A stretch of DNA of 57,632 nucleotides from Pseudomonadota bacterium (lineage in GTDB: Bacteria; Pseudomonadota; Alphaproteobacteria; Sphingomonadales; CAKZYD01), in NCBI GenBank assembly GCA_039026755.1, contig JBCCLR010000002.1:1-57632 (forward strand), given 5' to 3'. Below the pieces are notes generated by a model. That model was not told the DNA's origin, did no database searches, and worked only from the letters and a program-made list of their open reading frames with translations. Below are positions 27,254-48,842 of this stretch, one piece after another; the stretch's first letter is position 1, and each line of letters starts with the position of its first letter. A program made the translations under genes and the position numbers.

Positions 27254-27408
27254 CCTTATCAATTTACCCACCTGAGAATCCCCATCTATACTGAGCTGCA
27301 ACTGCCAATTAGTTGCAGCTTCATAGGTGGGACGATTTCCCCTCGTGGAGTGGCAGAGGTTTTTTAAAAAAACCGCCAAAAACATTTAAGACGGCAGACT
27401 ATACAGTC

Positions 27409-28491: not shown

Positions 28492-29099
28492 AACGGGTCG
28501 CTGCCTGGCGCTGCATTGAGCGCTGTTTCGATGTCAAAAGCGGCCTGAGCAATCTGCTTTGCGACATGCCTACGGTTGACGCCAAGCCGTTTGGCAACAG
28601 CAACGAAATTCAATCCATCCACGCGGTGCCATAAAAACGCTTTCCGGCGTCGCTCTGGCATTGCGCTGAGGACTTGGTTCACAATGTGAAGCTGCTCTCG
28701 CATGTATAAGACGTTTTCCGGGCTCAAACTGGTACTATCGAGCGCGAAAAAGAGATTCTCGATTTCATAGTCGTATTTAGACCGCGCCTCGATATGGCGC
28801 TTACCGTCAAGCACCAAATTACGGGCGATGCGCCATAAAAAGGCCCTGAGGTTTTTGATCGTACCCAAGCTGCGGTGTTCATAAAGCCTGGCAAAGGCTT
28901 CTTGCATCACTTCATCGGGGTCAGGCGGACCATCTCCATATTCACGGCGGAGGTAGCGCGACAGCTGTTCAGCGTGATCTTCGTAAAGATGAGCGACAGC
29001 TGATGCATGTTTACGCGCATCCACTATGTTGGAGCTCGCTTCACCTTCTGACGGATCAGACTGCGGCGACGCATCCTCGCCATATGGCCGGTCCAGCAT
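28488..29099 (-). CDS. ECF (sigma-70 family, FecI-like) RNA polymerase sigma factor
   Basis: Region 2 (DPDEVMQEAFARLYE...FLWRIARNLVLD) and region 4 (KAFLWHRVDGLNFVAVAKRLGVNRRHVAKQI). Confidence 0.88.
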   Translation of the reverse strand: MLDRPYGEDASPQSDPSEGEASSNIVDARKHASAVAHLYEDHAEQLSRYLRREYGDGPPDPDEVMQEAFARLYEHRSLGTIKNLRAFLWRIARNLVLDGKRHIEARSKYDYEIENLFFALDSTSLSPENVLYMREQLHIVNQVLSAMPERRRKAFLWHRVDGLNFVAVAKRLGVNRRHVAKQIAQAAFDIETALNAAPGSDPL

Positions 29100-29400
29100 G
29101 GCTATAGCACCACAAATTCTTCGACGACAGCACAGTTTAGGTGATTAAAACATAGCGCTTTGCGCGCGTCGGTGATGTATCGCCACATTTTTCTTTTATC
29201 CAAAACCGGAGCATTGCAGGCGGCTTTTTGAGAATGCGTATAAGAAACCTAACGAGACACCTCTTTATTGCAAGCAAATTCAAAAAACACCTCATGCGGG
29301 GCTACAGCCGATCAGACACGCGTGATGCCATCGATATTTAAGGCTAGATCATTCCCGAAAAAGGTCGCGCAGTGTTCGCTAAAGAGAAGATATCGCGTGC

Positions 29401-30342
29401 TTAATCAAAGCTGAAAATATGCCTTTTATAGTCCTCTAGAAGGGACGATGCGGATACTTTCTTAGCCATAGCTTGAATAGGCTGCGCAGGTGCCTGGTGG
29501 AGCAATTTGGTCTGCCCGTCATACTGTCCACTGGTTTTGACGCGTATCGCGGCGCGCTCAAGGTCAAAAAGCTCTGGCCGGGTGAGATAAACCGCGGCAA
29601 CAACATCATGTAAACAGCAGCCAAGCGCGCCATCGCGTTTGATGTAAAGCGCCTCATAGCCGCGAGAGATATCATAGAGAAATCTGGCCGCGCTGTGCCC
29701 CATTTCGGCCATCTGCGCGGCATCGGGCGCTGGTAAAATACAGTCCAGCGTCACATCAAGGCCGATCATGGTGACAGGCCAGTCTGCGGCACACACTCGC
29801 TCAGCTGCTTCGGGATCATAAAAAATATTGGCTTCGGCATGCGGGCGAATATTGCCACTGCGGTTTTGATTGCCAAACGCACCGCCCATACACACCACGC
29901 CAGCCACGTGGCAAGCAATGTCAGGCGCCTTTTGAAGGGCCATGGCAAGGTTGGTAAGCGGGCCAAGCGCAAGCAGCGTTATCGCGCCAGGGCTGGCACG
30001 CACCGCTGCAATAATGGCATCGCATGCAGGCACATCCATGGCCGGCAGCGCTTGTGTGGCGGCGAGATGCGTATCTCCAAACGCATCCGCCCCATGGACT
30101 TTTAATTGGGAAATGTGCCGCGGGCGAACGATTGGTTCTGCTGCGCCGACAAACACTGGAACATCTAATGTAAAGTGCGTGACAAGATAGGCGGCATTAC
30201 GAGCTGTGGTCAAAACGTCGCTATTGCCAAAGACCGTTGTCAGCGCCTCAATCTTAACCTCGGGGTGCGCCGCTAAATACAAAATGGCCATGGCATCATC
30301 AATGCCAGGGTCGGTATCTATAATCACACGCGTTTGTGTCAT
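29401..30342 (-). CDS. Nucleoside hydrolase (inosine/uridine-preferring IUNH family)
   Basis: N-terminal signature VIIDTDPGIDDAMAI. 313 aa. Confidence 0.9.
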   Translation of the reverse strand: MTQTRVIIDTDPGIDDAMAILYLAAHPEVKIEALTTVFGNSDVLTTARNAAYLVTHFTLDVPVFVGAAEPIVRPRHISQLKVHGADAFGDTHLAATQALPAMDVPACDAIIAAVRASPGAITLLALGPLTNLAMALQKAPDIACHVAGVVCMGGAFGNQNRSGNIRPHAEANIFYDPEAAERVCAADWPVTMIGLDVTLDCILPAPDAAQMAEMGHSAARFLYDISRGYEALYIKRDGALGCCLHDVVAAVYLTRPELFDLERAAIRVKTSGQYDGQTKLLHQAPAQPIQAMAKKVSASSLLEDYKRHIFSFD

Positions 30343-30348
30343 GCTGAG

Positions 30349-31614
30349 CTATACCTGACCAAAAACAGTGCTGAGAATACCGATAACACTGCCGGTCATA
30401 CAGCTTGTCAAAAATGCGGCAAACAGCGCTTTAATGCCAAGCGCTATAATGTCATCTTTGCGCTCTGGTGCCATCGCCGCAAGCGTTCCGATTAGAATAG
30501 CAACGCTGCCAAAGTTGCCAAAGCTGCCTAGCGCATATGTGGCAATATGGATGGATTTGTCAGACAAGGCATCTTCGGGAAGCGCAATGAGTTGGCTATA
30601 GGCAACCACTTCATTTGCCGCAACTTTCGCTCCTAAAAGGCCACCAAGCACCGTCAAGTCTGGCATTGGGACGCCCATTAGCCAACTAAAAGGAAGCAAC
30701 AGTGTGCCCAGCAACGTGCTGAGAGTGAGCGGCTGTGCTGCCGGCCAGAACAGCGCTAATAGCGTATCAACCAAATCGATGATCCCAATAAATACAATCA
30801 GCAGCGCAATCACATAAGCGGCAATTTTTACAGCGCCTATCGTTCCCTGCGTGACTGCATCGAGGCTATTTTTATATTGGCTAGAAAGCTGCACCTGCGG
30901 CAGCGTGGTATGTGATTGCCCGGGGATTATGATGCGCGCCATCGTGATGGCCATTGGCATGCTGATCAAAGTCGCGCTCAGCAGCTGGGCGAAAGCGCCA
31001 GGTATCCGTGCCGCGAGCAGACCACCAATTAAGATCATCGTCGAACCCCCAATCACAGACAAGCCATCCACCATGATGATGAAGAGTTCGCCGCGGGACA
31101 CTTTGGGCAACAACGGCCGCACCAAGAGTGGCGCTTCGACCATACCAAGAAAAATGCATGCAGACGTGGGCACGCCGACAGGCCCGCTGACCCCAAAGGC
31201 TTTGCCGAAAGCCCAGGCTGCACCGCGCACAATCCATCGCAAAATACCCCAGTGCCACAGTACTGCCGCCAGGGCACTCACCAAAAAAATCGCCGGCACC
31301 ACTTGCAATGCAAAAATGAACGTGGAGCGGGCTGGCGAGACTGCTTCAAACGGCTGCAGCCCACCCCCCAAATACCCAAAGACAAAGACAGCACCTGCTT
31401 GCGCAGACTGCTGAAGCCTGTCGACACCACGTGCAATATTGCCGATACCATTTACGACCGCAGGGACTTGCGTCAGCACAATCGCCAGCCCAATTTGCAT
31501 TACCAAACCGCCAAAGGCTTGGCGCAAATTGATGGCGCGGCGATTTTCAGACAACAGCCAGGCGAGTGCCAGAAAGACGCCAATGCCAAGTAGCGCTCTA
31601 GCGACTTCCCCCAT
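30349..31614 (-). CDS. nupC: NupC/CNT-family nucleoside transporter
   Basis: Polytopic protein with a CNT-like N-terminus (LLGIGVFLALAWLLSENRRAINLR). The ATG at 31614 is preferred because the palindromic operator lies inside the longer ORF-track version. Confidence 0.88.
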   Translation of the reverse strand: MGEVARALLGIGVFLALAWLLSENRRAINLRQAFGGLVMQIGLAIVLTQVPAVVNGIGNIARGVDRLQQSAQAGAVFVFGYLGGGLQPFEAVSPARSTFIFALQVVPAIFLVSALAAVLWHWGILRWIVRGAAWAFGKAFGVSGPVGVPTSACIFLGMVEAPLLVRPLLPKVSRGELFIIMVDGLSVIGGSTMILIGGLLAARIPGAFAQLLSATLISMPMAITMARIIIPGQSHTTLPQVQLSSQYKNSLDAVTQGTIGAVKIAAYVIALLIVFIGIIDLVDTLLALFWPAAQPLTLSTLLGTLLLPFSWLMGVPMPDLTVLGGLLGAKVAANEVVAYSQLIALPEDALSDKSIHIATYALGSFGNFGSVAILIGTLAAMAPERKDDIIALGIKALFAAFLTSCMTGSVIGILSTVFGQV

Positions 31615-31646
31615 CAACCAATCACCCTGCACATTTTCGATCTTAC

Positions 31647-31658
31647 TTAAACGTTTAA
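31647..31658. promoter_or_regulatory. LacI-type operator candidate, perfect palindrome TTAAACGTTTAA (upstream of nupC and the nucleoside hydrolase gene)
   Basis: Exact 12-mer, 33-44 nt upstream of the 31614 start. Confidence 0.7.
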
Positions 31659-31724
31659 TATCGAAGCGGATTGGCCAGCGCAAGCGATCTGCGGTGCATC
31701 ACCTCACACAGTTGCGCAATGGCA

Positions 31725-32732
31725 TCAGGACTGGGTTGCCGCAATCATCGAACTGCGCGTGACAATTTCCGTTTCAAGCGAGATCTTCTTTTTGCGGCCA
31801 GCTGGCTTTTGCATGCGTTCTAGCAGCAGTGATACTGCGGTTTGACCAAGATTTGGGATCGGCTGACGCAATGTCGTTAAAGCAGGCGTAACAAGATCGC
31901 TCCAAGGTGTATTATCAAATCCCGTGACGGAAATATCCTGCGGCACCGATTGTCCGAGCTGATCAAGATAACGCACGATCGCTATGGCAATCATATCATT
32001 GCCACCAATGATAACGCTCGCGTCAGTATTGGCCCGCAGTTTTGCTTGAGCCGCTTCGTTTAAAGTAAAAGCAAAAGGTGTCTGTACGGTCCAAACCACG
32101 CGGCCACCACCTTTTAAGCCCGCTTTAAAGCCAGCAAGGCGGTCTTGAACACTTTCTATGTGCTTTGGCCCTGAGATAAAGCCAATTTTGGTGTGGCCTT
32201 GTTGCAGCACACACTGCGCCAGCCGTTTGCCACCTTGAAAATAGTCTGAGCTGACACAATCATACCCATGCATCTGCCTGTCTATGACGACGACAGGAAG
32301 CGTTTTTTTAGCTTGTTTCATGGTGTTGACGTCCGTTGCTGGACACCATATCAAACCGTCGATGCCGTGCTGCATCAGTGTATTCAATCCAGCAAGTTCA
32401 TCGGCTGTAGAATCTTGCGAATTAATCAGAAAAACTGCGTAGCCTGCTTTTGCCGCAGCGCGTTCAATCGCTAAAACCAATTCCGGAAAAAATGGGTTTG
32501 TAAGGTCTGGCAGGATCAGTCCAATCGTGTTGGTGCGGCCCGTGCGCATGGCGCGGCCGGCGATATTATGGCGATAGCCCAGCCGCTGCATGGTCTCGAC
32601 AATGCGTTTTCGAACATCTTCACCAACCGAGCCAGTGCCATTTATGGTGTAGGAAACCGCGGCAATGGAAACACCAGCCTCTTTTGCCACATCTTTGATG
32701 GTGATGCGTTTTTGTATCGGTGGCTTTACCAT
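31725..32732 (-). CDS. LacI-family transcriptional regulator
   Basis: N-terminal HTH (ITIKDVAKEAGVSIAAVSYTING) and a periplasmic-binding-protein-like core. Confidence 0.9.
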   Translation of the reverse strand: MVKPPIQKRITIKDVAKEAGVSIAAVSYTINGTGSVGEDVRKRIVETMQRLGYRHNIAGRAMRTGRTNTIGLILPDLTNPFFPELVLAIERAAAKAGYAVFLINSQDSTADELAGLNTLMQHGIDGLIWCPATDVNTMKQAKKTLPVVVIDRQMHGYDCVSSDYFQGGKRLAQCVLQQGHTKIGFISGPKHIESVQDRLAGFKAGLKGGGRVVWTVQTPFAFTLNEAAQAKLRANTDASVIIGGNDMIAIAIVRYLDQLGQSVPQDISVTGFDNTPWSDLVTPALTTLRQPIPNLGQTAVSLLLERMQKPAGRKKKISLETEIVTRSSMIAATQS

Positions 32733-32833
32733 TCACAAAATTTCCGCTGCCTGGACGCGGAATCCATGCTCTCGTCCACTAGCGTTCTAAGAGATTAGCG
32801 CAGCAAAGAAAACCAGCAGTGTACCGAAGGACG

Positions 32834-33700
32834 TTAAAGCCGCGACTTGAGCATTGCATGGGCTGCCATTTCACCGGCAGCAACTGCACCTTTGATGTCA
32901 TTTGCCCCGCTAAGCAGAGCCCCAAGGGTGGCGCCTGCAAATGTATCACCAGCACCGGTGGTATCTTCAGATGCAAGCGGCTGAACCGCGATTTCCTCAA
33001 ATCCATCTTTTGCTTCGATCAAAATTCCGTCCGCGCCGCGTGTTTCGATCACAGTACATTTTCGTAAACCTTGTTTGTGGATCGCCGCATTTACAAAACT
33101 GCGCTCACTGGCGTTGCAAAATATGATATCTGCGCGCTCACCAAGCTTTTCCTGCAGTGCGCTGGGAAAACACTTTTCATCCCTTTTTGCAATCCAAGCG
33201 ACAAATGCACTGGCCTTTGTATGTGCCAACACATCAAGCGTTTGTTGCGGCGGGCCGGCGGTTATACAGACGAGATCCGCTTGTTCTACGGTCTCAACCT
33301 GAGCGGCAGAAAGACCTACGGTTTCACCAGTTTCACCATTATCAATGAGGCACCCTTGGCTGCCATCTTGCTGATAAATCAAAAAGCATGACGGGGTGGC
33401 CTTATTCTTTAAGACTTGAACCGCATGTGTGCGCAAACCATGCCCCTGACAGTGCTGCAAGTAACGCTGGCCGGCGGGATCATCGCCTAACCAAATCAAT
33501 GGATATGTGGCAGTGGCATAGCGTGCCAACTGTAAAGATGTGTAGAGCGTTCCGCCGCCAGGCCGCGCCCACATTGTTTGATCAACGGGCTCAATATGGG
33601 CAATGTTGCGGCCATTAAATGGACCAGCTAAATTCAAGCAATAATCCAGCGTCGCATAGCCGCTAACCACCGCAGTCTCTAACATTTTCACTGCCGGCAT
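32834..33700 (-). CDS. PfkB-family carbohydrate/nucleoside kinase
   Basis: C-terminal ATP-site signature DTTGAGDTFAGA. Confidence 0.85.
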   Translation of the reverse strand: MPAVKMLETAVVSGYATLDYCLNLAGPFNGRNIAHIEPVDQTMWARPGGGTLYTSLQLARYATATYPLIWLGDDPAGQRYLQHCQGHGLRTHAVQVLKNKATPSCFLIYQQDGSQGCLIDNGETGETVGLSAAQVETVEQADLVCITAGPPQQTLDVLAHTKASAFVAWIAKRDEKCFPSALQEKLGERADIIFCNASERSFVNAAIHKQGLRKCTVIETRGADGILIEAKDGFEEIAVQPLASEDTTGAGDTFAGATLGALLSGANDIKGAVAAGEMAAHAMLKSRL

Positions 33701-33734
33701 TGGTATTTAAACCTAAGCTTAAGTTGCTGTTGCA

Positions 33735-34766
33735 CTAGTTGGGTTGCCTGCACCAGTGTGATGCCATTGACCCGCAAATAGCAGCTTCAAGTTGTTCACT
33801 GCGGCGCTGGGAGATCGTGCGCTCTTGGTTTGTGTCTGCTGGGTTGCCGTCGCGCTGCTTTGCGCCGCGATACTCATAAAGATGCAGCGCGGCATTTAAG
33901 GACCCTGCAGCAGCGGCATAGGTATCTAAATTATCCGGCGTGTCATCGATGACCAGGATATGCGTGAAGGAGAGACCGGCAGTGCTCTCAAGCAAAAGCT
34001 TGAGCATAATCGCTTTGTTTTGACCAGCAAGCATCATTACACCTTGCGCGATAGAGATTTCGCGCGGCCGGCCGTCCAAAGATAAAGATGCAGACCTCAG
34101 TGCAATATCGATTTGCTGCGCAGAAATGCGGCCACGGCGCGGACACAGCGGCGGGCCACAATCCGGGAAGGAAGAAAAGTCGATACTGTGTCGGTCCAGT
34201 TCACGCAAGGTACTGCCGCGCGCTTGTGGACTGCGCGCGGTGACGGCAAGGACAGCAATGTCAGCACCTTGCAATTGCTCTACCAGCGCAGGCGCATTTG
34301 GCTGGGTCAGTGTCATTGTGCTCAGCTGAAACAGACTGATTTGGCGATCAACCAATCCAGCGAAGTCTCTTGCAATTGCATCGCCTTGTTGCGGCACGGA
34401 AAGTAGATCGCTTTGCCATTCAAACCAGGCATCGCTGCCCAAATATTGCGGCATGGTCAGCAGCGTATCATCAATATCAAACACCACGAGAACAGCGCTC
34501 GGGCCGTCTTGCTTGGCCAGCTGCAGAGCGCGGCCAGCAGGTTCTGCGAGATCCTTTGTTACCCGGCGCACGGCGACCGTGCCCGCCGGCCTTGCAGCTT
34601 GAAACGCGCTGTCATGTGCACATGCGCTTAAAGCCAATAGCTGCAAAATCCATATATGCGCGATCGGATGACCTGCAAGTCTGGTGCGGATGGGACGCTC
34701 ACGCAAAACCCTCAACACGCCGCTCAAGAGCGCCCAAGCCTGTTGTGAATAGTGGCTCCACTGCAT
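33735..34766 (-). CDS. HAD-superfamily phosphatase-like exported protein
   Basis: HAD motif I VVFDIDDTLL, motif II AVTARS, and motif IV ILVIDDTPDN. Lipobox-like LLALSAC. Confidence 0.5.
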   Translation of the reverse strand: MQWSHYSQQAWALLSGVLRVLRERPIRTRLAGHPIAHIWILQLLALSACAHDSAFQAARPAGTVAVRRVTKDLAEPAGRALQLAKQDGPSAVLVVFDIDDTLLTMPQYLGSDAWFEWQSDLLSVPQQGDAIARDFAGLVDRQISLFQLSTMTLTQPNAPALVEQLQGADIAVLAVTARSPQARGSTLRELDRHSIDFSSFPDCGPPLCPRRGRISAQQIDIALRSASLSLDGRPREISIAQGVMMLAGQNKAIMLKLLLESTAGLSFTHILVIDDTPDNLDTYAAAAGSLNAALHLYEYRGAKQRDGNPADTNQERTISQRRSEQLEAAICGSMASHWCRQPN

Positions 34767-34795
34767 AGTCGTTTCCTAAAAATCAGCACACACAA

Positions 34796-34807
34796 TTAAA
34801 CGTTTAA
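34796..34807. promoter_or_regulatory. LacI-type operator candidate, perfect TTAAACGTTTAA (upstream of the HAD phosphatase gene)
   Basis: Exact 12-mer, 30 nt upstream of the 34766 start. Confidence 0.7.
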
Positions 34808-34841
34808 TTTTTTGTTGACTAGGGGCTGAAACACACCTATT

Positions 34842-35897
34842 TCACTGCGCATCTGGGGCAGCGCCAGATAGCAACCCTGTCGCTCGAAATGGCGGTGCCG
34901 CGCCAAGGCTAACCTCCACCTTTGTTACATCGCGAACGCCGTAGCCCGGCCCGGCATCACCTGCTGCATTGAGGCGCCAAAGGTTTTCAGCCCCTTGCCC
35001 TGCCAAATGCTTGTCAAAGGTGAACGGCCCAGTATCACCATGGATCAATAATACCGGTTTTTTAAAGACCCGCGCATGCCCCCGCAGCGCTTTCCTAAAA
35101 CCAAGAAAAGCGTCACATGGCTGCTCCGCCTTAGCCGTCGCAGTGATGCAGTCACGCCCCTGGCCGCCGGCATTTATATTCGTTGGGTCGGCATGCATGA
35201 TGATGATAACGGCCGCCGCAGCTTCTTTTGCAGCACGTTCAAAGCCGTGCTTAAGCCACTCTAAATTGGCCGCTTGGCGTGCCATGATGAGGTCTGTAGC
35301 GCGCGTTAAATCATCGCCCCTAACCTCATCAAATCCATTATTTGTGCCGACGATATGTAGGGTGAGAAAGCGCACATTTTGATACGCCCAGCTGGCATTT
35401 TCGCGCTGGCGGTTTTGCTGCTCGGCCTCCAGCTCCGGCGGCGCTTTACTGGTATCAAACAGCATGTCTTCACGCACAAAATTAAGCCGTTCCAATTCAG
35501 AATAGGGGCGCTGTGTCAGCGGGTTTATGGCCCGGTCACAATCCGTCCATTCATTATCGCCAGGAGTATAAAACACCGCCTTTGGCGCAAGTGAGCGGAC
35601 GATGCGCCGCTGCTTGTCATCCAATGCGGATGAGCATACCTCGCCGCCTCCCTTGTAGTCACCCAAATGCACGGCAAAGGGCGCTTTGCTTAACCGCATA
35701 CGCGGCAGGGCCTGTTCTAGCATTGCATCATCTTGCGGCGAATAAGGCGTATCGCCGATGACGATGAAGCTGAATGAAACCCTCTCTTTTAAAGCGGGTT
35801 TCAAGGCCGTTTCAGCCGAGAGCATGTCCGTGCTGGGCTGCGCGCATGCAGCTATGACTGCACAGACCAAAACATGAAAGCACCGAGAGCATGACAT
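34842..35897 (-). CDS. Calcineurin-like metallophosphoesterase, probable lipoprotein
   Basis: Lipobox VIAAC. Metal-ligand motifs IVIGDTPY, HLGDYKGG, PGDNEWTDC, IIMHADP and LIHGDTG. Confidence 0.7.
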   Translation of the reverse strand: MSCSRCFHVLVCAVIAACAQPSTDMLSAETALKPALKERVSFSFIVIGDTPYSPQDDAMLEQALPRMRLSKAPFAVHLGDYKGGGEVCSSALDDKQRRIVRSLAPKAVFYTPGDNEWTDCDRAINPLTQRPYSELERLNFVREDMLFDTSKAPPELEAEQQNRQRENASWAYQNVRFLTLHIVGTNNGFDEVRGDDLTRATDLIMARQAANLEWLKHGFERAAKEAAAAVIIIMHADPTNINAGGQGRDCITATAKAEQPCDAFLGFRKALRGHARVFKKPVLLIHGDTGPFTFDKHLAGQGAENLWRLNAAGDAGPGYGVRDVTKVEVSLGAAPPFRATGLLSGAAPDAQ

Positions 35898-35952
35898 GCA
35901 CCCCTCTTATGCCAATCTCACCGTCTGTGCCAAGACGTTTATTCTGATTGAA

Positions 35953-35964
35953 TTAAACGTTTAA
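35953..35964. promoter_or_regulatory. LacI-type operator candidate, perfect TTAAACGTTTAA (divergent promoter between the metallophosphoesterase gene and the TrpF-like/deaminase pair)
   Basis: Exact 12-mer in the 110-nt divergent intergenic region. A half-site-like AAGACGTTTATT lies at 35932-35943. Confidence 0.7.
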
Positions 35965-36007
35965 GCTTATTAAGCTCGTCGGCGAACGCAACATCAACAA
36001 TTCGGTT

Positions 36008-36724
36008 ATGAAAACCTGCACTATGCCCGCGTACACGCCGCCAGAATTCATTACATTTACCGGTCTTGACACATCAAGCGCTCTTGCTGACGCCGAGGCG
36101 CTCTCGCAGATCTACCCCATTGAATGGGGCGTGCTTCTTGACCCCGCGCAGGTGGGCGCAAGCCTGTTTCCCAACCACACCATAGTTACAGCCATTCGCT
36201 CAAGCCCGCTACGCCTTTCCGCACATATCTGCGGCGCAGCAGCGCGCGATATCGCGCTTAATGGTGATGCGGATATTGACCTCGCTGGTTTTTCCCGGGC
36301 GCAGATTAATCATGGCGTTAAGGGCAGTGATGAAGCGCAAATTGAGAACTGCGCAGTCTTTGGCGCGCGCCGCGGCCTTCGCGCAGCGCTGCAGTGTCAA
36401 GGTGATTTTCCGCAAGACACGCGGGTCGATTGGTTGTTTGACGTGTCCTTTGGCGCAGGCATAGCCCCCGCACAATACCCCGCCATAAGCGCCGATAATC
36501 CGATTGTCGGTATATCTGGTGGGCTTGGCCCTGGGAATATTGCGGCGGTTTTACGCAGCCTGCAGGTTGCTCCAAATGCGCGTTACTGGATCGACATGGA
36601 ATCGCGCATTCGAACGAACGGCATGCTCGATCTAGGCAAATGCCGCGCGGTGTGTGAGGCAGTTTTTGGTGCCGGTGATCAGCCTCGCCAGCGCCTCGCT
36701 GCTACAGGTAAAATCGCGACATGA
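36008..36724 (+). CDS. Hypothetical TIM-barrel-like protein resembling phosphoribosylanthranilate isomerase (TrpF-like)
   Basis: The C-terminal segment VGISGGLGPGNIAAVL...YWIDMESRIRTNGMLDLGKCRAV resembles the TrpF phosphate-binding end. There is a 4-nt ATGA overlap with the deaminase gene. Confidence 0.4.
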   Translation: MKTCTMPAYTPPEFITFTGLDTSSALADAEALSQIYPIEWGVLLDPAQVGASLFPNHTIVTAIRSSPLRLSAHICGAAARDIALNGDADIDLAGFSRAQINHGVKGSDEAQIENCAVFGARRGLRAALQCQGDFPQDTRVDWLFDVSFGAGIAPAQYPAISADNPIVGISGGLGPGNIAAVLRSLQVAPNARYWIDMESRIRTNGMLDLGKCRAVCEAVFGAGDQPRQRLAATGKIAT

Positions 36725-37758
36725 GCGGCGACATGCATCGCATTAAAGACCTCGTACGCGCCTTGCCGAAAGTCGAGCTCCACCTGCATATCGAAGGCAG
36801 CTTAGAGCCCCAACACATGCTCGAGTTCGCTGCCCGCAATAGCGTGCAGCTGCCCTATTGCAGCGTCGCAGAAATTAAGCAGGCTTATCAATTTAACAAC
36901 CTGCAAGAGTTTCTCGATATCTACTACCAGGGCATGTCCGTGCTCTGCACCGAGCAGGATTTTCATGATCTTACCTATGCCTATATGCGGCGCGTACATG
37001 CAGACAATTGCCGCCATGTAGAGATCTTTTTCGACCCACAAGCCCACAAGGCGCGCGGCATTGCCTTTGGCGCCGTGATCAATGGCATCCTCTCAGGCCT
37101 GGCAGCGGGCGAACGCGACTTCGGCATTACAGCGCATTTGATCATGTCTTTTCTGCGCCATTTGAGCGAAGCATCGGCATTTGAAACACTTGAGCAAGCC
37201 ACGCCTTACCTGGACCGCCTGCTTGGTGTTGGCCTTGATTCGTCGGAACTCGGGCACCCACCCTGCAAGTTTAGACGGGTGTTTGCAAAGTGCCGTGATT
37301 TCGGTCTCAAAATCTTTGCGCATGCGGGTGAAGAGGGTCCGCCGGAGTATATCTATCAAGCACTTGATGAGCTTTGTATTGATCGCCTAGACCATGGCAA
37401 TCGCGCGCTAGAAGACCCCGCACTAACAAAGCGCCTAGCCCAGCAAGGCATTTGTTTAACAGTTTGCCCGCTCTCTAACGTTAAATTATGCGTCGTTGAC
37501 ACTATGGCTCAGCACCCGATCCGCCAAATGCTTGCGGCCGGTCTCAGAGCGACGGTCAATTCCGATGATCCGTCCTATTTCGGCGGCTATATCAATGATA
37601 ATTTTACAGCACTTGCGGACGCCGTTGCCTTAACGCATAGCGAGGTCGTACAGCTGAGCATGAACGCTGTTGACGGCTCCTTCTTGCCTGCTGCGCGCAA
37701 GGCGGAGTTGTTTGCTGAAATCAAGACTATCGCTGACGCCAGCTTAAATACGTGGTGA
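36721..37758 (+). CDS. Adenosine/adenine deaminase (amidohydrolase family)
   Basis: Motifs LPKVELHLHIEGSL, FAHAGEEG and VNSDDPSYFGGY. Confidence 0.9.
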   Translation: MSGDMHRIKDLVRALPKVELHLHIEGSLEPQHMLEFAARNSVQLPYCSVAEIKQAYQFNNLQEFLDIYYQGMSVLCTEQDFHDLTYAYMRRVHADNCRHVEIFFDPQAHKARGIAFGAVINGILSGLAAGERDFGITAHLIMSFLRHLSEASAFETLEQATPYLDRLLGVGLDSSELGHPPCKFRRVFAKCRDFGLKIFAHAGEEGPPEYIYQALDELCIDRLDHGNRALEDPALTKRLAQQGICLTVCPLSNVKLCVVDTMAQHPIRQMLAAGLRATVNSDDPSYFGGYINDNFTALADAVALTHSEVVQLSMNAVDGSFLPAARKAELFAEIKTIADASLNTW

Positions 37759-37818
37759 CCACGCTTCTTACAGAAATGCGATCGTTCATCACATATGGCA
37801 AATCGAGCACAAATTAAC

Positions 37819-37830
37819 TTAAAGGTTTAA
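37819..37830. promoter_or_regulatory. LacI-type operator candidate with one mismatch (TTAAAGGTTTAA)
   Basis: Upstream of the split TonB receptor. Confidence 0.45.
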
Positions 37831-37885
37831 GTTCTTCGATTTTCTCGCTTGAAAAAGCGGAAAAAACGCGACAATGTCATTTTAC

Positions 37886-37897
37886 TGAAACGTTTAA
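37886..37897. promoter_or_regulatory. LacI-type operator candidate with one mismatch (TGAAACGTTTAA)
   Basis: About 40 nt upstream of the split TonB receptor start. Confidence 0.55.
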
Positions 37898-37933
37898 GCT
37901 AAATAGAATATATAAACGAAACCAGGGGTGCAT

Positions 37934-39995
37934 ATGGCTTGTTTCAAATCTCAACTCTTATCTTCATTTGCCATTGCTGCTGTCGCATGCGTTTTGTCAG
38001 AAAATGCAGCAGCGCAAATGGCAGAAGACACGGCGCTTTCTCAGACGGAGATTGAGGATATTCTGGTGGTCAGTACCGCCGATAAGTTCGGTAGCGGGCT
38101 CACCCAGGCAACATTTGTGTTGGGCGCGGAAGACATTGAAACTCGGCCACTTGGCGCGGAAATCACACAAAGCCTTAATCAGATCCCTGGTGTCCAAGTT
38201 GCGACTGGGGATAGTCGCGGCGGGGTTTTTTCCTTTGAACTTTATCTGCGCGGTTTAACCGATGAGCAGATCGGCTTTTCCATTGATGGCGTCCCCACCG
38301 GCGATAGCCGCACGCAAGGTGGCGGACCGCCAAACCGGTTTTTAGACAGCTCAAACATTGGCCGCATTATCGTCTCGCAAAGCTCAGGCGAAATTGGCGC
38401 ACCAACCCGCTTCGGGCTGGGCGGATTTATGAATTTTGTATCGTCAAATCCCGCACCGGAAGCGGGCGCGACTTTTGAAGCAAGTGCCGGTTCGTTTGAT
38501 CATCGGCGCTTATTTATCCGTGCCGATTTTGGTGAACTGGCACCTGGTTTGACCGGATATGCAAGCTTCTCAGATGCCGACACTGACGTGTGGGCCGGCG
38601 GCGACCGTGCCAACAGTCGCCAGCATGCAACGATAAAAATCTTGAAGCAATTTGATGCCGGTCACAGCGTTGCGCTCAATGCCAACTGGAACAATCTTGA
38701 CTACAATGATTTCAACATCATTACACAGCCACTGTTTGAGGGAAATCCTGACTCAGATGGTGCCGTGGGTAATTTTCGCGGTATTCCCAGCCTAGACAAC
38801 ATCAACAGCCTGCAACCCTTCGGGCCGGCATTTGGCGGCTTTCGCGAGGATTTGTTCGTCTATGTGAATGCTGAATTTGTCGTCTCCGATAGCATCGTTA
38901 TTGATGTGAACCCCTATTGGCATAAAGGTGAAGGGGCAATTCAAGCTGCTCGATGACCGTCTTAGCTTTGATGTCGGTGCGACATGGCTGCAAAACAATT
39001 ATCAAGCAAGCTCGTTCTTGGAGTATCAAGGCGAAGTTGACATTACCCGCAACTCCGGCCTCTTGCCGAAGCTCGGCGCAGCCTTTCAACTGACAGATCA
39101 TATCGAAATTTTCGGAGCATTCGCGCAAAACTGGTCAGGTATTCCAGAGGATACTTTCCTTGGAAGCACCGCAGCAATTACTGAAGATTTACAAGGTCTT
39201 GAAAGCACTAATGCTGATCTCGGCATCCGTATTGTGGGGGACAATTATGCCTTTTCTTTGCAAGGCTACATCATCGATGCAGACGGGTTTATTGGCTTTA
39301 CACCGCTCGATCCTGATGCGGATCCAGTGGAAATCATCACTGGCAATGCAGCGACCAAATCTGAAAACTTAGGCAGCCAGCGTACTGAAGGTGTTGAGGT
39401 GACAGGCTTTTATGACTTTGGCGCCGCGGATATTTACGTCTCCTATGCCTATCAAAACGCAAGGCACGGCGGCACCGACGACCCAGATGTGGCCCTTGCT
39501 TTGCGGCAAGTCGGCGTTATTGCTGGCGAACGGGTGCGTGATATCCCCGAGCACTCTATTTTTGCGAGATTGGGATGGAGCCCAACCGACCATTTACGTC
39601 TGGAGGCCAATATCGACTATCGTGGCAGCCGGGTTGGCGGTCATCTTATTACGCCCGGCTTCTGCAATCCGTTTTTCTGCTTTGGCAGTGACGGCAGCGG
39701 TGCGGCAGCGTCTTCGGCGCTTGGTATTGATCAGCTTGAAGCCTACACAACAATCGGCCTGCTTGCGCAATATGACATTGATGTCTTTAACGGGGTAACG
39801 CTGCAACTCAATGTCGATAATCTGCTGGATGAAAACTATATAGCCTCAGTCTCTGGAGCGACAGCCACGTTGGCGGAATTTGGGGCCATCAGTAACTTTT
39901 CGGGCGGCGATATTACAGCCCAGCCCGGGTCACTCGACCGATATTTTATCGGCGCACCGAGAACGATTACGTTTTCCATAAAAGCCGCATTTTAA
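37934..39995 (+). pseudogene. TonB-dependent receptor split by a +1 frame change near 38910-38956 (pseudogene or sequencing error)
   Basis: ORF 37928-38956 encodes the signal peptide, plug and first barrel strands. ORF 38928-39995, in the +1 frame, encodes the rest and ends in the canonical ..TFSIKAAF. The two ORFs overlap by 29 nt. Confidence 0.8.
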
Positions 39996-40214
39996 TGTGG
40001 TCTCTTGCGCCAGCGACGTTGCGGAAACAGCCCGCCAAATGGAGATTAAAATATCTGGGCGTGGGCATTTGAAAAGGCAGACTTGCTGACGCCTAGGCCG
40101 CCTAAAACGTTGCAGCGATATCGCAGGTGTCGACGCATTTTAAAAAGAAAATTGCCGACATGTGAAAGCAGCGATATGAAGCTCCTCAGACAGTGGCTCT
40201 GGGGACCCGTTCAT

Positions 40215-41204
40215 ATGGCAAAAAAGGCCCCTGAACCTGGCAAAACGACGCTCAAAGACGTTGCCGCTGCGGCCGGCGTATCGATTGCGACAGTGTCTTA
40301 TGTTCTGAATAAGAAGAAACCGATTGGCGTAGAAAAGACCAAGCGCGTGTTAGACTCCGTCGAACGGCTTGGCTATCGACCCTCGAAACATGCCATTGCC
40401 ATGCGCACGGGACGCAGTGGCGATATCGGACTTGTGCTGCCAGATCTAACGACATCCTATTTTGCTGCGCTTGCAGAAAGCGTGACGCTGGCCGCAGCTC
40501 AACGCGGCAGCAATGTCTACCTCATCAGCACAAATGGCCTAAAATCAAATGAGCGTACGGCCATTGAAAGCCTTTCCAAAGGCGGCGTTGACGGCGTCAT
40601 ATGGTTCCCCAATTTTGACGAAGACACATACAGCGGCGCACCTATGGACCTGCCAGTCGTGGTCATCGACCGAAACCTGGCAGCCTATGATGTTGTCCAT
40701 GCGGACTATCGGCGTGGCGGCATGTTGGCAGCACAGTTTTTATGCAGCAAAGGCCATCAAAAAATTGGCTTGATCGAAGGCCCCCAAAATATTTCAAGCT
40801 CGTTTGAGCGTAGCGCCGGTTTTACAGCTGCACTTTCGAGCCATGCAGACTTGCTCTGGCGCATCGAACATGGCTTTCGCTATGATATCGAGCATGCTGC
40901 TCTAAAGCTGATTGCACAGAAAGACGTGACAGCCATCATGTGCGGCAATGATACGATCGCAATTGGCGTTTTGCGCGTCTTGCGCCAGCTCGGTATTGCG
41001 TGTCCGCAAGCAATATCGGTCATGGGCTTCAATGATACCCAGATGTCCGCGCTCGTGTACCCATCTCTTACCACGGTGAAGATGCCAATTCAGGAGATGG
41101 GATTTGAAGCGGTTGATATTCTCACCAGCAGGATCGCAAATCGCGCGGGCACACGCCGGCGCTGTGTTTTGGACGTCTGCGTGGTCGAACGCGAGAGTGC
41201 CTAA
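40215..41204 (+). CDS. LacI-family transcriptional regulator (second copy)
   Basis: HTH TLKDVAAAAGVSIATVSYVLNKK. The ATG at 40215 is preferred over the TTG at 40083. Confidence 0.88.
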   Translation: MAKKAPEPGKTTLKDVAAAAGVSIATVSYVLNKKKPIGVEKTKRVLDSVERLGYRPSKHAIAMRTGRSGDIGLVLPDLTTSYFAALAESVTLAAAQRGSNVYLISTNGLKSNERTAIESLSKGGVDGVIWFPNFDEDTYSGAPMDLPVVVIDRNLAAYDVVHADYRRGGMLAAQFLCSKGHQKIGLIEGPQNISSSFERSAGFTAALSSHADLLWRIEHGFRYDIEHAALKLIAQKDVTAIMCGNDTIAIGVLRVLRQLGIACPQAISVMGFNDTQMSALVYPSLTTVKMPIQEMGFEAVDILTSRIANRAGTRRRCVLDVCVVERESA

Positions 41205-41342
41205 CATAGCCCCAATGGCAGGTCTATGCACGTGGTGGCGCTGCGGCTGAAAAATAAGCTCATCTGCCTTCATAAATGCTGCTGGCACAATCCCCAGCCC
41301 TCATCAACCAAGCGCTTAGACGAAAACCAAGCGTTGCGGCAA

Positions 41343-41386
41343 TTGACATCACTTAAGATTTTTCACTACTATACTTAAACGTTTAA
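41343..41386 (+). promoter_or_regulatory. Candidate sigma-70 promoter (TTGACA-N18-TACTAT) with a perfect TTAAACGTTTAA operator (41375-41386) just downstream of the -10
   Basis: Read directly from the sequence, upstream of the OprO/P-like porin gene. Confidence 0.55.
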
Positions 41387-41504
41387 CTATAGTGTGTGAA
41401 TATCGTTTCCGGGTGGCGAGGCGGCGCCTTTCATATGTTTTTCGCGGCCTATGAGAGCTGTGTTTTGCGATGCGGCAGCACCAAATCAAAGGACAGGTAA
41501 CGCC

Positions 41505-42566
41505 ATGCTGCGTTGGTTCGCTTGCTTGCTCATAAGCTCCATTTTTCCGGCCATGGGCGCGGCCGGACACCAGGAAAACAGCGGCAATATGGAGACATTC
41601 TCCCTATATTCATGGGCACATTTGGATGCATCCGGCGATGGTTTAAGCGTGAGGAGACTGCGCATTGGCAGCAAAGGCAGTGCTTTTTTAACAAGCAGAT
41701 TTAAACTGGAGCTCGATGTAGATGACGACGGCACCGTTGAGTTCAGAGATGCCTTCGCTCAAATAACCGATAGCCAAGTTACACTTAAGCTTGGCGCCAT
41801 GCGTACCCCAAACTCTGTCAATGCATTAACGTCGTCTCGGTTGTTTATTGTGCTTGAGCGAGCAGCATTTACGCGCGTTTTTAGCCTTGATCGGCGCGTT
41901 GGCTTCAGTGCGGCTTATATGTCAGACAAGCATGCACTAAGTGCCGGTGTATTCGCTGGCAATGCAAATGGATTAGCCGCTTCAACCGGCTTTGCACTTG
42001 CGGTGAGAGCGATGCAGCATCAAAAGCTTGGAGCGCAGTATGAGTTGATGCTAGCGGCGTCATATCTGTACCGGCAAAAGCCCATTGTAAAACACTTCTA
42101 CGGTCTGGAGGCCGCACTGTACGGGCGGCGCCATTGGGTGATTGCAGAAGTCGGACGACAAGTGTCAGCAGCGTCGCCAGGATCCCCTGCGCAACCCACC
42201 GGCCTGGACGATACGATTTCCGGGATCGGCGGGTATATTGAGTTTGGCATTGCTGTTCGGCGAAACGGGCCGTTTCGGCCCTATGATGCAGCCTTTGGCG
42301 AACGACCGAGCGATCTGTATGTTGCGACGCGGCTTGATATATTGCAGGTGAAGAGCTGCACGCCCCGCTGCCACTATAGCGCATTCACCCTTGGCCTATG
42401 CTGGCGCACCGCAGCCAATATTCGCATTGCCGCAAATGTGTTTTTTACAAACACCAACATCGGTACCAGATTTCCTGATGCGCAAAGCTTCGCCCCGTTA
42501 GCGAAAAGGCGCGGCAGCGCTCAAGGGACCGGCGCACTTGCACGACTACAACTGGCGTTTGGCTGA
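41505..42566 (+). CDS. OprO/OprP-like (phosphate/anion-selective family) outer-membrane porin
   Basis: Signal peptide MLRWFACLLISSIFPAMGAAG. The segment LKLGAMRTPNSVNALTSSRLFIVLERAAF resembles the Porin_O_P core. Confidence 0.6.
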   Translation: MLRWFACLLISSIFPAMGAAGHQENSGNMETFSLYSWAHLDASGDGLSVRRLRIGSKGSAFLTSRFKLELDVDDDGTVEFRDAFAQITDSQVTLKLGAMRTPNSVNALTSSRLFIVLERAAFTRVFSLDRRVGFSAAYMSDKHALSAGVFAGNANGLAASTGFALAVRAMQHQKLGAQYELMLAASYLYRQKPIVKHFYGLEAALYGRRHWVIAEVGRQVSAASPGSPAQPTGLDDTISGIGGYIEFGIAVRRNGPFRPYDAAFGERPSDLYVATRLDILQVKSCTPRCHYSAFTLGLCWRTAANIRIAANVFFTNTNIGTRFPDAQSFAPLAKRRGSAQGTGALARLQLAFG

Positions 42567-42731
42567 ATGGACGTAGTGAACATCTGAGACACGCAATCCA
42601 GCGAAGCGGACACTCATAGAGTTTTGCAGATACATACGCACTCAAAAGTGGCTATAGCGCCGCCGCCCATGCACTCAACATGGAAAAATATTACAAATAT
42701 ATGACATAATGATTTCAATATGTTAGATTAG

Positions 42732-42743
42732 TTTAAACGATTA
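42732..42743. promoter_or_regulatory. Degenerate operator-like site TTAAACGATTAT (two mismatches)
   Basis: Lies in the AT-rich region upstream of the usp-like gene. Confidence 0.3.
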
Positions 42744-42823
42744 TATTATGGCAAGATCAAAGGATGTATTGGCTGGCCTGATCGAGCCAACCTACGGCTC
42801 AACCAGATGCCAAAGGACAAGGC

Positions 42824-43729
42824 GTGGATGTAGTGATGGCGATGAAATTTGTTGTCCCCCTAAATGGCGAAATAGAGCGTCATCCGTTTAATACATTTGA
42901 TGACAGCGCTTTAATGTCCGCTTTTTTGTTGGCGCGGCGCGTGCGCGGGCATATCGAGGCATTTTGTACACGCCCAGCACCGTCAAAAGCGTGGCAGTGG
43001 CTCAGCAAAACCGTCGCCACAACACGTCAGGGAGAAAATGCGCCTGGCATCGTTCCAAACACAGATAAAAAATCGCGCAAAGCGTTTGAACGCATTATGA
43101 ACGTGTCGGACTATTTTTCGGTGCCGGTAAATCAAACCAAGCCACTTGGCGCGAAGTGCTCCGCTAGTTTTTTAACGCAGCCAAATGAAGATTTTTTTTC
43201 TGCAAGCGTCGCCCAGCGCGGGCGATTGGCCGATGTGATCGTTATCGGCAAAAATGACCCTTTTCAGATGGCTATTTGGCCAAATGAGCTACAGCAAGCG
43301 CTTTATGAAACCGCCAGCCCGGTGCTGATTTGCCCAAGTTCACTGCCCAAGAAAGTGGGCAAGCGCATTATGCTTGCATGGAATGGTAGCATTGCTTCCA
43401 GCTTTGCAGCAACCGTATCGATTGAAGTGATGCAAGCAGCCAAGGCCGTCACGGTGGTGCATTACCAGGAAAAGACCGACAACACGCCGCGGTTAGAAGA
43501 TTTAATGTCTTATTTAAAGCTGCACGATGTCGACGCACAGCTCAGGCTGCTGGATAAGCCTAGTAACGGCCTTGCGAGCGCATTGCTTCGACAAGCCGAT
43601 GCGTGCCGGGCGGACATGATCATTATCGGCTCGACACAGCGCTCACGCATCAATCAACTGTTCTTTGGCAGCATCTTTTACGAGGTGGTACAGAAAGCAA
43701 AAATACCGGTGTTGCTGTGCCGAAGCTGA
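42824..43729 (+). CDS. Universal stress protein family protein (tandem Usp-like domains)
   Basis: C-terminal Usp signature ADMIIIGSTQRSRINQLFFGSIFYEVVQKAKIPVLLC. Confidence 0.7.
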   Translation: MDVVMAMKFVVPLNGEIERHPFNTFDDSALMSAFLLARRVRGHIEAFCTRPAPSKAWQWLSKTVATTRQGENAPGIVPNTDKKSRKAFERIMNVSDYFSVPVNQTKPLGAKCSASFLTQPNEDFFSASVAQRGRLADVIVIGKNDPFQMAIWPNELQQALYETASPVLICPSSLPKKVGKRIMLAWNGSIASSFAATVSIEVMQAAKAVTVVHYQEKTDNTPRLEDLMSYLKLHDVDAQLRLLDKPSNGLASALLRQADACRADMIIIGSTQRSRINQLFFGSIFYEVVQKAKIPVLLCRS

Positions 43730-43990
43730 ATACAAAAAAGGCGCGAAACATCAATCTTTCGGTCAGCGATACGTTCAATCCAAAACCGTGCTCACATGGT
43801 GTATGGCAAATTTTAATCGCAACAACAGCGGCAGCGAAGTGATGCTGCAAGACCAGGTGTAAATCGCATCTTGGTGCGGTTTGGATACATCCCCTCGCTT
43901 AGCCGCGTGCAAACGGCAAAAGTCTTGGTTTTGTAGGGGTAGCTCAGGGTTTGATTGGCGATCCTATTACACGGCGACCCTTTATTATTA

Positions 43991-44004
43991 TTTAAACGTT
44001 TAAA
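43991..44004. promoter_or_regulatory. LacI-type operator candidate, perfect 14-bp palindrome TTTAAACGTTTAAA (upstream of the HIU hydrolase gene)
   Basis: Contains the exact 12-mer; about 40 nt upstream of the 44043 start. Confidence 0.7.
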
Positions 44005-44042
44005 CAATGGTCTGATATTGTGATGGGAACGAGCCCGCAATC

Positions 44043-44399
44043 ATGCCGGATTTAACGACGCACGTGCTTGATGTGGTGGCTGGGCGACCAGCCATCGGCG
44101 TTGCTGTAAAGCTGTATTGGCTGGCAACACCAGATGATGCCTCGCTGATCTTATCTACCCGGACAAATGCGCTCGGCCGCTGCAGCGAACCCATGTTAAA
44201 GGGCCACAAACTGGCACCTGGCAAATACCGTATGACCTTTGGCATTGGTGAGTATTTCCGTAAATCGGGTTTCATGTTCCAAGAACCTGCGTTTTTAGAC
44301 ACTGTTCCCATCGAGTTTGGTATCGATATCAGCGAAAGCCGTTACCACATTGCGCTGCTTATTTCGCCTTTCGGCTACTTAACATTTCGGGACGGTTAA
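44043..44399 (+). CDS. uraH: 5-hydroxyisourate hydrolase (transthyretin-like)
   Basis: N-terminal LTTHVLDVVAGRPAIGVAV, 118 aa, and the segment YHIALLISPFGY. Confidence 0.85.
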   Translation: MPDLTTHVLDVVAGRPAIGVAVKLYWLATPDDASLILSTRTNALGRCSEPMLKGHKLAPGKYRMTFGIGEYFRKSGFMFQEPAFLDTVPIEFGIDISESRYHIALLISPFGYLTFRDG

Positions 44400-45577: not shown

Positions 45578-45590
45578 GCAAAACCGATGC

Positions 45591-48071: not shown

Positions 48072-48163
48072 GGCATTACCCCTCCGCTGATGGCCCTGTC
48101 GTCATGTGCTTTAAAGCCCTGGTCTGCGCATAAAGAGGGTTTTGAATGCGAAATTGGATACTG

Positions 48164-48181
48164 TTGTCATAATATTTTCAT
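48164..48181 (+). promoter_or_regulatory. Pho-box-like direct repeat TTGTCAT-AATA-TTTTCAT
   Basis: 15 of 18 positions match CTGTCATAWAWCTGTCAY. It lies in the divergent region between the transducer and the ECF sigma gene. Confidence 0.4.
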
Positions 48182-48838: not shown

Positions 48839-48842
48839 AAAA

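Follow-up and report, generated by a model that had tools for sequence, protein, structure and literature searches.

A repeated palindrome as the predicted operator of LacI-type regulators of nucleoside, ribose and purine scavenging genes in an alphaproteobacterial genome

Gene content of the locus

The window analysed here is a stretch of 57,632 nucleotides from an alphaproteobacterial genome of the order Sphingomonadales (assembly GCA_039026755.1, contig JBCCLR010000002.1, positions 1 to 57,632 of the forward strand), and between positions 29401 and 44399 it contains genes of nucleoside and purine utilization, two genes encoding LacI-family regulators and eight copies, exact or degenerate, of the 12-nucleotide palindrome TTAAACGTTTAA. 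A previous sequence-only reading had taken this palindrome as the mark of a regulon of LacI type that serves to scavenge nucleosides and purines, and comparative sequence evidence now lends support to that proposal through conservation of the motif across genomes and its covariation with the recognition helix of the regulators.

The two LacI paralogs noted in that reading were confirmed by domain matches. LacI1 (31725..32732, minus strand) and LacI2 (40227..41204, plus strand, in an open frame from 40083, the start near 40227 being placed by homolog alignment) score 50.4 and 54.2 bits, respectively, with the LacI helix-turn-helix model PF00356 (cut-off 27), and Peripla_BP_1, Peripla_BP_3 and Peripla_BP_4 were above cut-off in both. 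The proteins are 43% identical and have near-identical recognition helices, GVSIAAVSYTING and GVSIATVSYVLNKK (SIAAVSY and SIATVSY, within SIAAVSYTIN of LacI1 and SIATVSYVLN of LacI2). The identity of LacI2 to LacI1 is about the same as to every other member of the family (42-45%), and the locus looks like two joined modules, pfkB-lacI and receptor-lacI, that share one operator type. Tandem paralogs of the same LacI subfamily were also found in Porticoccus sp. W117 (locus L080, 6007-8015), where the locus has a TonB receptor, a TrpF-like gene, a DUF2608 gene and add; therefore, the window is not the only place where the regulator is duplicated.

Regarding nucleoside uptake and cleavage, the genes encoding an inosine-uridine-preferring type nucleoside hydrolase (iunH/rihC-like, 29401..30342, minus strand; PF01156, 271 bits) and a NupC-family nucleoside transporter (30349..31632, minus strand, from a family match) are adjacent, the start of nupC being either GTG 31632, which is the gene call of the sister assembly mapped onto the window, or ATG 31614. 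On the same strand are genes encoding a PfkB-family kinase that is only distantly ribokinase-like and is kept in related nucleoside loci (32834..33700), a DUF2608 protein (33735..34766) with the HAD-like DxDxT motif FDIDDT, the lipobox LSAC and the segments VTARS and VIDDTPDN, which were read as further HAD motifs, and a lipoprotein metallophosphoesterase of 351 residues (34842..35897, lipobox IAAC), assigned from sequence motifs, family and model. The model of the metallophosphoesterase (predicted local distance difference test, pLDDT, 89.5) has structural matches to Lmo2642, SMPDL3A/B, purple acid phosphatases, Rv0805 and UshA, by which the predicted fold is confirmed, the matches being generic to phosphodiesterases and phosphatases.

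On the plus strand, a TrpF-like TIM-barrel protein of 238 residues (36008..36724, start 36023 in the gene call of the sister assembly) precedes adenosine deaminase (add, 36721..37758; NF006850, 512.8 bits, cut-off 419). The sequence-only reading had the free base deaminated, but a gene product matching adenosine deaminase would act on the nucleoside. The TrpF-like protein gave no match in Pfam, and a sequence search of solved structures was uninformative both for it and for the metallophosphoesterase; its family is named phosphoribosylanthranilate isomerase in some sources. The model is a TIM barrel (pLDDT 94.3) whose best solved match is TrpF (1dl3), at a template modelling score of only 0.46-0.55, so that "TrpF-like" is a fair model-based label that assigns no reaction. 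Orthologs of this protein were detected in ten related loci (L009, L033, L037, L041, L044, L045, L051, L053, L061 and L080), and the gene adjoins iunH, pfkB and nupC in many genomes.

A TonB-dependent receptor (37928..39995, plus strand) is encoded in two reading frames, 37928-38956 and 38928-39995, and its alignment with six orthologs falls into two blocks of different frame, which meet at about 38935-38937. Further along the plus strand are genes encoding a divergent OprO/P-like porin (41451..42566, likely start 41505, from a family match), a Usp-domain protein (42824..43729) whose membership of the regulon is tentative, and 5-hydroxyisourate hydrolase (hiuH, 44043..44399; TIGR02962, 102.4 bits, cut-off 87.45). 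The porin is nearly an orphan: an exhaustive profile search of 1.84 billion representative proteins returned one full-length relative with 33% identity, other matches spanning only the first ~150 residues, and no relative was confirmed in a search of metagenome contigs. The earlier identification of nupC, the nucleoside hydrolase, the deaminase (here adenosine deaminase), the porin, the Usp protein, the 5-hydroxyisourate hydrolase, the TrpF-like protein and the lipoprotein-type metallophosphoesterase and HAD protein was upheld.

Copies of the motif in the window

Five exact copies of TTAAACGTTTAA begin at 31647, 34796, 35953, 41375 and 43992, with one-mismatch copies at 37819 (TTAAAGGTTTAA) and 37886 (TGAAACGTTTAA). 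These positions agree with the earlier reading, and the two-mismatch copy that it had put at 42732 exists but occupies 42733-42744. The chance expectation for such a 12-mer, given there as about 0.003, was recalculated as 57632/4^12 = 0.0034, and no exact copy occurred in any of 100 dinucleotide-preserving shuffles. Matches with at most two mismatches numbered 9 in the whole window where 1.41 were expected.

A 20-nucleotide matrix, trained on 91 sites taken from other genomes, recovered eight sites of 15.4-26.9 bits, all within 31.6-44.0 kb, whereas the next-best score in the window was 7.7 bits and the best score per shuffled window averaged 10.0 bits with a maximum of 17.7. Seven sites are clearly above chance, and the site at 42733, upstream of usp, is marginal on its own because its 15.4 bits fall below the shuffle maximum and thus within the chance range for a single site. 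Two candidates were rejected, namely a two-mismatch match at window position 1552, which lies inside a bchL-like gene and scores 1.3 bits, and a candidate at 40103 upstream of lacI2, whose 7.7 bits are not significant. In the matrix scan the remaining 45 kb of the window contained no copy of the motif.

As had been stated before, every copy is intergenic, and the eight sites are situated 15-118 nt ahead of a start codon. In the lacI1-nupC spacer, the exact copy at 31647..31658 (23.6 bits) is an estimated 15-33 nt upstream of nupC; it falls inside the longest possible TTG frame of that gene, yet upstream of both GTG 31632 and ATG 31614, and is identical in the sister strain. The exact copy at 34796..34807 (25.1 bits), 29 nt upstream of the DUF2608 (HAD) gene, is the probable control point of a DUF2608-pfkB-lacI1 unit, from which autoregulation of lacI1 would follow. 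An exact copy at 35953..35964 (26.0 bits) is located in the divergent region between the metallophosphoesterase gene and the TrpF-like-add pair, 55 and 43-58 nt from the respective starts.

The TonB receptor gene is preceded by two sites, a weak, degenerate distal one at 37819..37830 (one mismatch, 19.3 bits, 104 nt) and a strong one at 37886..37897 (one mismatch, 26.5 bits, 37 nt), of which the latter sits between both hexamers of the promoter-like match TTTACT-17-TAGAAT. Upstream of the porin gene (64-118 nt), the exact copy at 41375..41386 (26.9 bits) forms the core of a near-perfect 26-nt palindrome (inverted repeat I12) and begins 3 nt past the promoter-like match TTGACA-18-TACTAT. The weak candidate at 42733..42744, 79 nt upstream of usp, also lies just past a promoter-like match, and the exact copy at 43992..44003 (22.5 bits) is 39 nt upstream of hiuH. 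Promoter-like hexamer pairs abut or overlap three sites (37886, 41375 and 42733), and the others are located 15-58 nt ahead of a start codon.

A palindrome with a central CpG and an even length of 14-20 bp, a trait of LacI-type operators, is present in seven of the eight sites, 37819 being the exception. The consensus across genomes is tAAcTTAAACGTTTAAgTTa, and similarity from copy to copy ends after about 20-25 nt. The core AAACGTTT is shared by PurR and RbsR operators.

Conservation of the motif in related genomes

The comparison set consisted of 80 alpha-, beta- and gammaproteobacterial loci in which a LacI protein of 40-48% identity is encoded, the best match in the searched genome collection being 48% identical. 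The motif or a close variant was detected in 71 of these loci. The matrix found 133 sites of at least 14 bits in 1.29 Mb, against 2.2 in shuffles, counts that are not independent of the matrix; 118 of the sites are intergenic and 49 lie within 1 kb upstream of lacI. The initial 12-mer scan of the same loci (at most two mismatches) gave the same picture. Genes adjoining the sites encode mostly TonB receptors (46) and LacI (45), followed by nupC (19), pfkB (8), iunH (6), the TrpF-like gene (5) and add (3). The motif thus adjoins orthologous regulators and targets in three proteobacterial classes, an outcome of the conservation check that the sequence-only reading had recommended, and it occurs in genomes of 42-72% G+C, always alongside a LacI gene.

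A cluster of iunH, the TrpF-like gene, pfkB, nupC, a TonB receptor gene and lacI was found in Caulobacter, in Steroidobacter and in an uncultured proteobacterium (L061), with partial versions in Sphingomonas, Kordiimonas and Porticoccus. The receptor of these conserved clusters is 45-55% identical to that of the window. Across the three classes, receptor genes under the motif often stand back-to-back with nupC or precede the gene of a PhoD phosphatase. A site was located at most 400 nt upstream of a TonB-receptor-like gene in 42 of the 80 loci. The TonB receptor is the commonest, hallmark partner of this LacI regulator family, whereas the first description of the locus had considered a receptor in such a regulon to be unusual.

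Gene contexts in two further genomes bear on the substrate. In Sphingomonas flavalba (L010, 9900-15421) one side of the motif has the gene for a ribokinase-like PfkB kinase, accompanied by a transaldolase gene, and the other a receptor gene followed by a PhoD phosphatase gene, so that the motif precedes both. In Porticoccus sp. W117 (L012) it is found between iunH and the gene of a ribokinase-like kinase that heads ribose-ABC-type transporter genes, a ribose-ABC-type binding protein being present, and another copy is located upstream of a receptor gene. Both contexts suggest that the substrates of the receptor family contain ribose or are phosphorylated.

Regarding the recognition of the motif, three classes of recognition helix match three classes of half-site. 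Regulators with SLASASYA are associated with TGAAAC (all 28 half-sites of the six Caulobacter-type loci that have SLASASYAINGA), those with S[VIA]ATVSYVLN with TTAAAC or TTAATC, and those with SVATVSNVLNGR with TGTAAC or TAAAAC. This covariation is the strongest argument available from sequence for the prediction that the regulator family itself reads the motif.

The nearest homolog of LacI1 (63% identical) is encoded in a relative (L081) with a genome of 45% G+C, in which the gene order metallophosphoesterase, DUF2608, pfkB and lacI is the same as in the window and continues with puuD, ureidoglycolate lyase, xdhABC, hiuH, puuE, OHCU decarboxylase and allantoicase. Exact or one-mismatch copies were found there in five places: between a ribokinase gene and the metallophosphoesterase gene (an exact copy in this divergent region, L081 position 1552), between the metallophosphoesterase and DUF2608 genes (2782, equivalent to the operator at 34796), upstream of puuD, and twice between hiuH and puuE (13403 and 13527). 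The ribokinase is a true one (306 bits, cut-off 299.65), and on a further contig of the relative the gene of this ribokinase is the first in a row with those of transaldolase, zwf, pgl, edd and eda. Both phosphoesterases and hiuH are hereby confirmed as conserved predicted targets of the motif, and in the window's genome further members of the regulon, namely genes of purine oxidation, probably lie beyond the window.

A sister assembly (GCA_039199085.1, L085) is 98.7% identical in DNA over window positions 26754-38561. The four strong operators of the shared stretch are intact in it, with substitutions close by; the operator at 34796 is unchanged despite six substitutions within 25 nt. At the degenerate site, TTAAAGGTTTAA of the window corresponds to TTAAACCTTTAA in the sister strain (L085 732-743), and the central dinucleotide is GG in the former and CC in the latter, which are reverse complements of each other, the consensus CpG occurring in neither. 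The sister contig ends inside the receptor gene, ahead of the junction of the two aligned blocks.

Three control genomes (L086-L088) contain the metallophosphoesterase (44-51% identical) unlinked to LacI, nucleoside genes or the motif, and no site of at least 10 bits was detected in 51 kb from them. Recruitment of the metallophosphoesterase into the predicted regulon is, on this comparison, specific to the window's clade. The motif is not spread regardless of gene context, a check that had also been recommended, since none was found in the other 45 kb or in these 51-kb controls.

Affiliation of the two regulators

Among NCBIfam models, those for RbsR, PurR, CcpA and UriR matched both regulators best, all below their curated cut-offs. 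With the two RbsR models LacI1 scored 238.9 (cut-off 382) and 188.8 (cut-off 531) and LacI2 218.3 and 156, with the PurR model 190.4 was obtained (cut-off 501), with the CcpA model 180 (cut-off 442), and with two Cra models 122.1 (cut-off 385) and 125.6 (cut-off 389.55). Neither LacI1 nor LacI2 is an RbsR ortholog as judged by the equivalog cut-offs, and neither belongs to PurR or Cra/FruR, given the low scores, targets that are uptake and breakdown genes, and a locus that has no fructose genes. Because all equivalog cut-offs were missed, the two proteins form a separate, unnamed orthologous group to which an effector is not transferable by orthology. In comparison with solved structures, CcpA, RbsR and PurR resemble them to about the same degree; in a 78-residue N-terminal fragment of LacI1, which covers the DNA-binding domain and hinge, residues 2-77 align without gaps to residues 3-78 of CcpA (PDB 1rzr, 1zvv), the hinge Leu of CcpA being Met in LacI1.

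A predicted scavenging regulon and alternative explanations

The explanation that best accounts for these observations, and which we consider highly probable, is that TTAAACGTTTAA forms the core of a 16-20 bp operator of the local repressors LacI1 and LacI2, by which nucleoside, ribose and purine scavenging would be controlled. The sites with their statistics and positions, the identities of the genes, the conservation in other genomes and the covariation between motif and regulator are observations; binding to the operators, the pairing of paralogs with sites, the inducer, repression as the mode of control and all substrates of transporters and enzymes are predictions. Dimers of LacI1 and LacI2 would bind the operators and, without inducer, stay on them, each operator overlapping a promoter or directly following it. 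The transcription units controlled in this way would number six or seven: DUF2608(HAD)-pfkB-lacI1, nupC-iunH, the gene of the lipoprotein metallophosphoesterase, the TrpF-like gene with add, the TonB receptor gene, probably together with lacI2, the porin gene, hiuH and possibly usp. An inducer would free the operators, and ribose or a nucleoside is our guess because relatives have true ribokinase genes behind this motif. Autoregulation of LacI1 would run via the operator at 34796, and that of LacI2 probably via the receptor promoter, the order of receptor followed by lacI being that of Caulobacter.

The gene set would import nucleosides and ribose-containing compounds, and nucleotides or nucleic-acid fragments might be used as well once their phosphate has been removed by the envelope-anchored phosphoesterases. 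Entry of nucleotides followed by dephosphorylation in the envelope is plausible in view of the two lipoprotein phosphoesterases encoded here and of PhoD next to the receptor in Sphingomonas. Nucleosides would then be cleaved to ribose and base, adenosine would be deaminated, and purines would enter urate breakdown.

Several observations weigh against this explanation. Both regulators are below the cut-off of every named NCBIfam equivalog. The window receptor is frameshifted and lacks about 128 residues (roughly 327-454) of its six orthologs, which fits a single deletion of ~385 bp, and hence a pseudogene, or an assembly error. The site at 37819 lacks the central CpG in both strains, and the score at 42733 is inside the shuffle range. 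Membership of the porin and the Usp protein rests on one site each because no relative of either was found near a site in any related locus. The overlap of sites with promoter-like sequences is only suggestive, such matches being no commoner than chance in the region (16 found, 14.0 expected). The matrix was derived from the same loci in which sites were later counted, and the distribution of the motif is known for 57.6 kb of the genome.

The local regulators could also follow a PurR-like logic, binding DNA only with a co-repressor such as a purine base and thereby switching scavenging off when purines are plentiful. PurR belongs to the same branch of the family, is about as similar to the local regulators as RbsR and CcpA, and arose from RbsR by a change of ligand and default state (PMC4052901); such a logic is nonetheless improbable here, since the targets are uptake and breakdown genes, which in the LacI family are typically induced by substrate, genes of a true ribokinase and of a ribose ABC transporter stand under the motif in relatives, and the PurR equivalog model gives 190, well short of its cut-off of 501.

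It is very improbable that the sites are instead operators of another LacI-family regulator, Cra/FruR-like or PurR-like and encoded outside the window, while the local LacI proteins read something else. In favour of an external regulator are the half-sites shared with Cra operators of Escherichia coli and Pseudomonas putida, a core AAACGTTT common to several LacI-family operators and a visible genome of 57.6 kb. Against it, 71 of 80 genomes have the motif together with an ortholog of the local regulator, in most cases a short way upstream of the ortholog's gene, and the half-site varies with the recognition helix of this regulator; the targets are neither fructose nor purine-biosynthesis genes, and both local LacI proteins score far under the Cra and PurR cut-offs.

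That the repeats are a dispersed element without regulatory role, of the repetitive extragenic palindromic (REP) or miniature inverted-repeat transposable element (MITE) type, or a compositional accident is next to inconceivable, although the copies are short, AT-rich, palindromic and intergenic like REP elements, since their similarity stops at about 20-25 nt, copies are absent from the other 45 kb of the window and the three control loci, the motif always accompanies a LacI gene in genomes of 42-72% G+C and three classes, shuffles yielded none and an Rfam scan of the whole window matched no RNA family.

Surroundings of the locus

A photosynthesis gene cluster occupies window positions 16-9900 and includes the C-terminal part of bchH, bchL, bchM and genes encoding a PucC/LhaA-type protein, the reaction-centre H subunit, a bPH_2 protein, an AcsF-type cyclase, a DUF3623 (PuhE-like) protein and an aminotransferase-class enzyme, maybe 5-aminolevulinate synthase. 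Given this cluster, the host would be an anoxygenic phototroph, and the AcsF-type cyclase suggests one of the aerobic kind. Modules of an ECF sigma factor, FecR and a TonB receptor with an STN domain are present on both flanks (24719-29099 and 44540-49937), neither of which contains the operator, and the receptor gene of the second module (45591-48071) overlaps with the gene downstream of it, which encodes a metallophosphoesterase of 364 residues (44540-45634). The region 50103-57587 encodes a type I secretion pair of an HlyD-family protein (50103-51401) and an ABC transporter (51414-53162), which is adjoined by an open reading frame of 1456 residues (53217-57587, minus strand).

Significance of the regulon

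The prediction of a LacI regulon from a repeated palindrome is routine comparative genomics and the switch itself would be ordinary; an operator and a regulon are now predicted for a regulator group outside all curated models. What is worth following are the TonB receptors and the TrpF-like enzyme under this operator across Proteobacteria, the TrpF-like TIM-barrel protein of the locus being well conserved and without an assigned reaction. A more far-reaching reading, which we put forward tentatively and hold to be somewhat less than an even prospect, is that the LacI subfamily and a dedicated TonB-dependent importer of nucleosides, nucleotides or small nucleic-acid fragments constitute a widespread proteobacterial counterpart of the ribose and DNA loci of Bacteroidetes. 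The importer would be co-regulated with NupC, the nucleoside hydrolase, the atypical PfkB kinase and the TrpF-like enzyme, to which some lineages would add exported phosphoesterases (metallophosphoesterase, HAD or PhoD) and the urate pathway. If true, this would assign a class of substrates to a family of TonB receptors that is so far uncharacterised, and would bring to light a new enzymatic step in the breakdown of nucleosides or ribose. To our knowledge, most TonB receptors are without a known substrate. Phytoplankton releases nucleosides, which are labile compounds, and a receptor family for nucleosides or nucleotides would therefore matter for the cycling of carbon, nitrogen and phosphorus in marine and soil environments.

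Comparison with known systems

The regulators resemble the RbsR/PurR/CcpA branch of the LacI family in their two-domain architecture with helix-turn-helix and hinge, in their best NCBIfam and solved-structure matches, and in a palindromic operator with central CpG and AAACGTTT core. They differ from this branch in that the outer operator positions are TTA here and not GCG or GCA, and in that the predicted targets include TonB receptors, exported phosphoesterases and urate-pathway genes. As for RbsR in particular, the motif of relatives precedes a true ribokinase gene (L081), genes of ribokinase-like kinases (L010 and L012) and a ribose-ABC gene (L012), whereas the window itself has only the distant PfkB kinase.

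Operators of Cra (FruR) have been described upstream of fruB in E. coli (O1, TGAAACGTTTCA) and in P. putida (PfruB, TTAAACGTTTCA) (PMC4050194). Their half-sites TGAAAC and TTAAAC are the two main variants of the LacI family studied here, but Cra is a global regulator that responds to fructose-1-phosphate, and the window locus has no fructose genes. LacI-family regulons of nucleoside and purine metabolism are known for CytR, UriR, AduR (adenosine, Rhizobiales) and HpxR (xanthine, Ralstonia) (PMC4052901). These likewise consist of a local LacI-family repressor over genes of nucleoside or purine uptake and breakdown; however, the regulators belong to other orthologous groups and none is listed with a TonB receptor (PMC4052901). 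The signature peptides of the LacI group studied here, LPDL[TRS]NPFF, SLASASYA and TTVSYVLNG, were absent from the part of the regulator table of that source that was covered.

A full-text literature search returned no paper linking a proteobacterial TonB receptor with nupC and iunH. The nearest functional analogue is the ribose utilization system (rus) of Bacteroidetes, a ribose-inducible system in which a SusC/D transporter is combined with ribokinases, nucleoside hydrolase, permease and regulator (bioRxiv 10.1101/574913). A case related to it is that of DNA-utilization loci in gut Bacteroidales (PMC12478041). Bacteroidetes use SusC/SusD pairs and mostly the regulator RusR, whereas the window has a classical proteobacterial receptor with no recognised SusD partner, and adds NupC, adenosine deaminase, the TrpF-like protein and urate-pathway genes. 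In rus-like loci, regulators of LacI type rank second in frequency (bioRxiv 10.1101/574913), and both systems have in common that an outer-membrane TonB-dependent transporter is clustered with genes encoding a ribokinase, a nucleoside hydrolase, a permease and a regulator.

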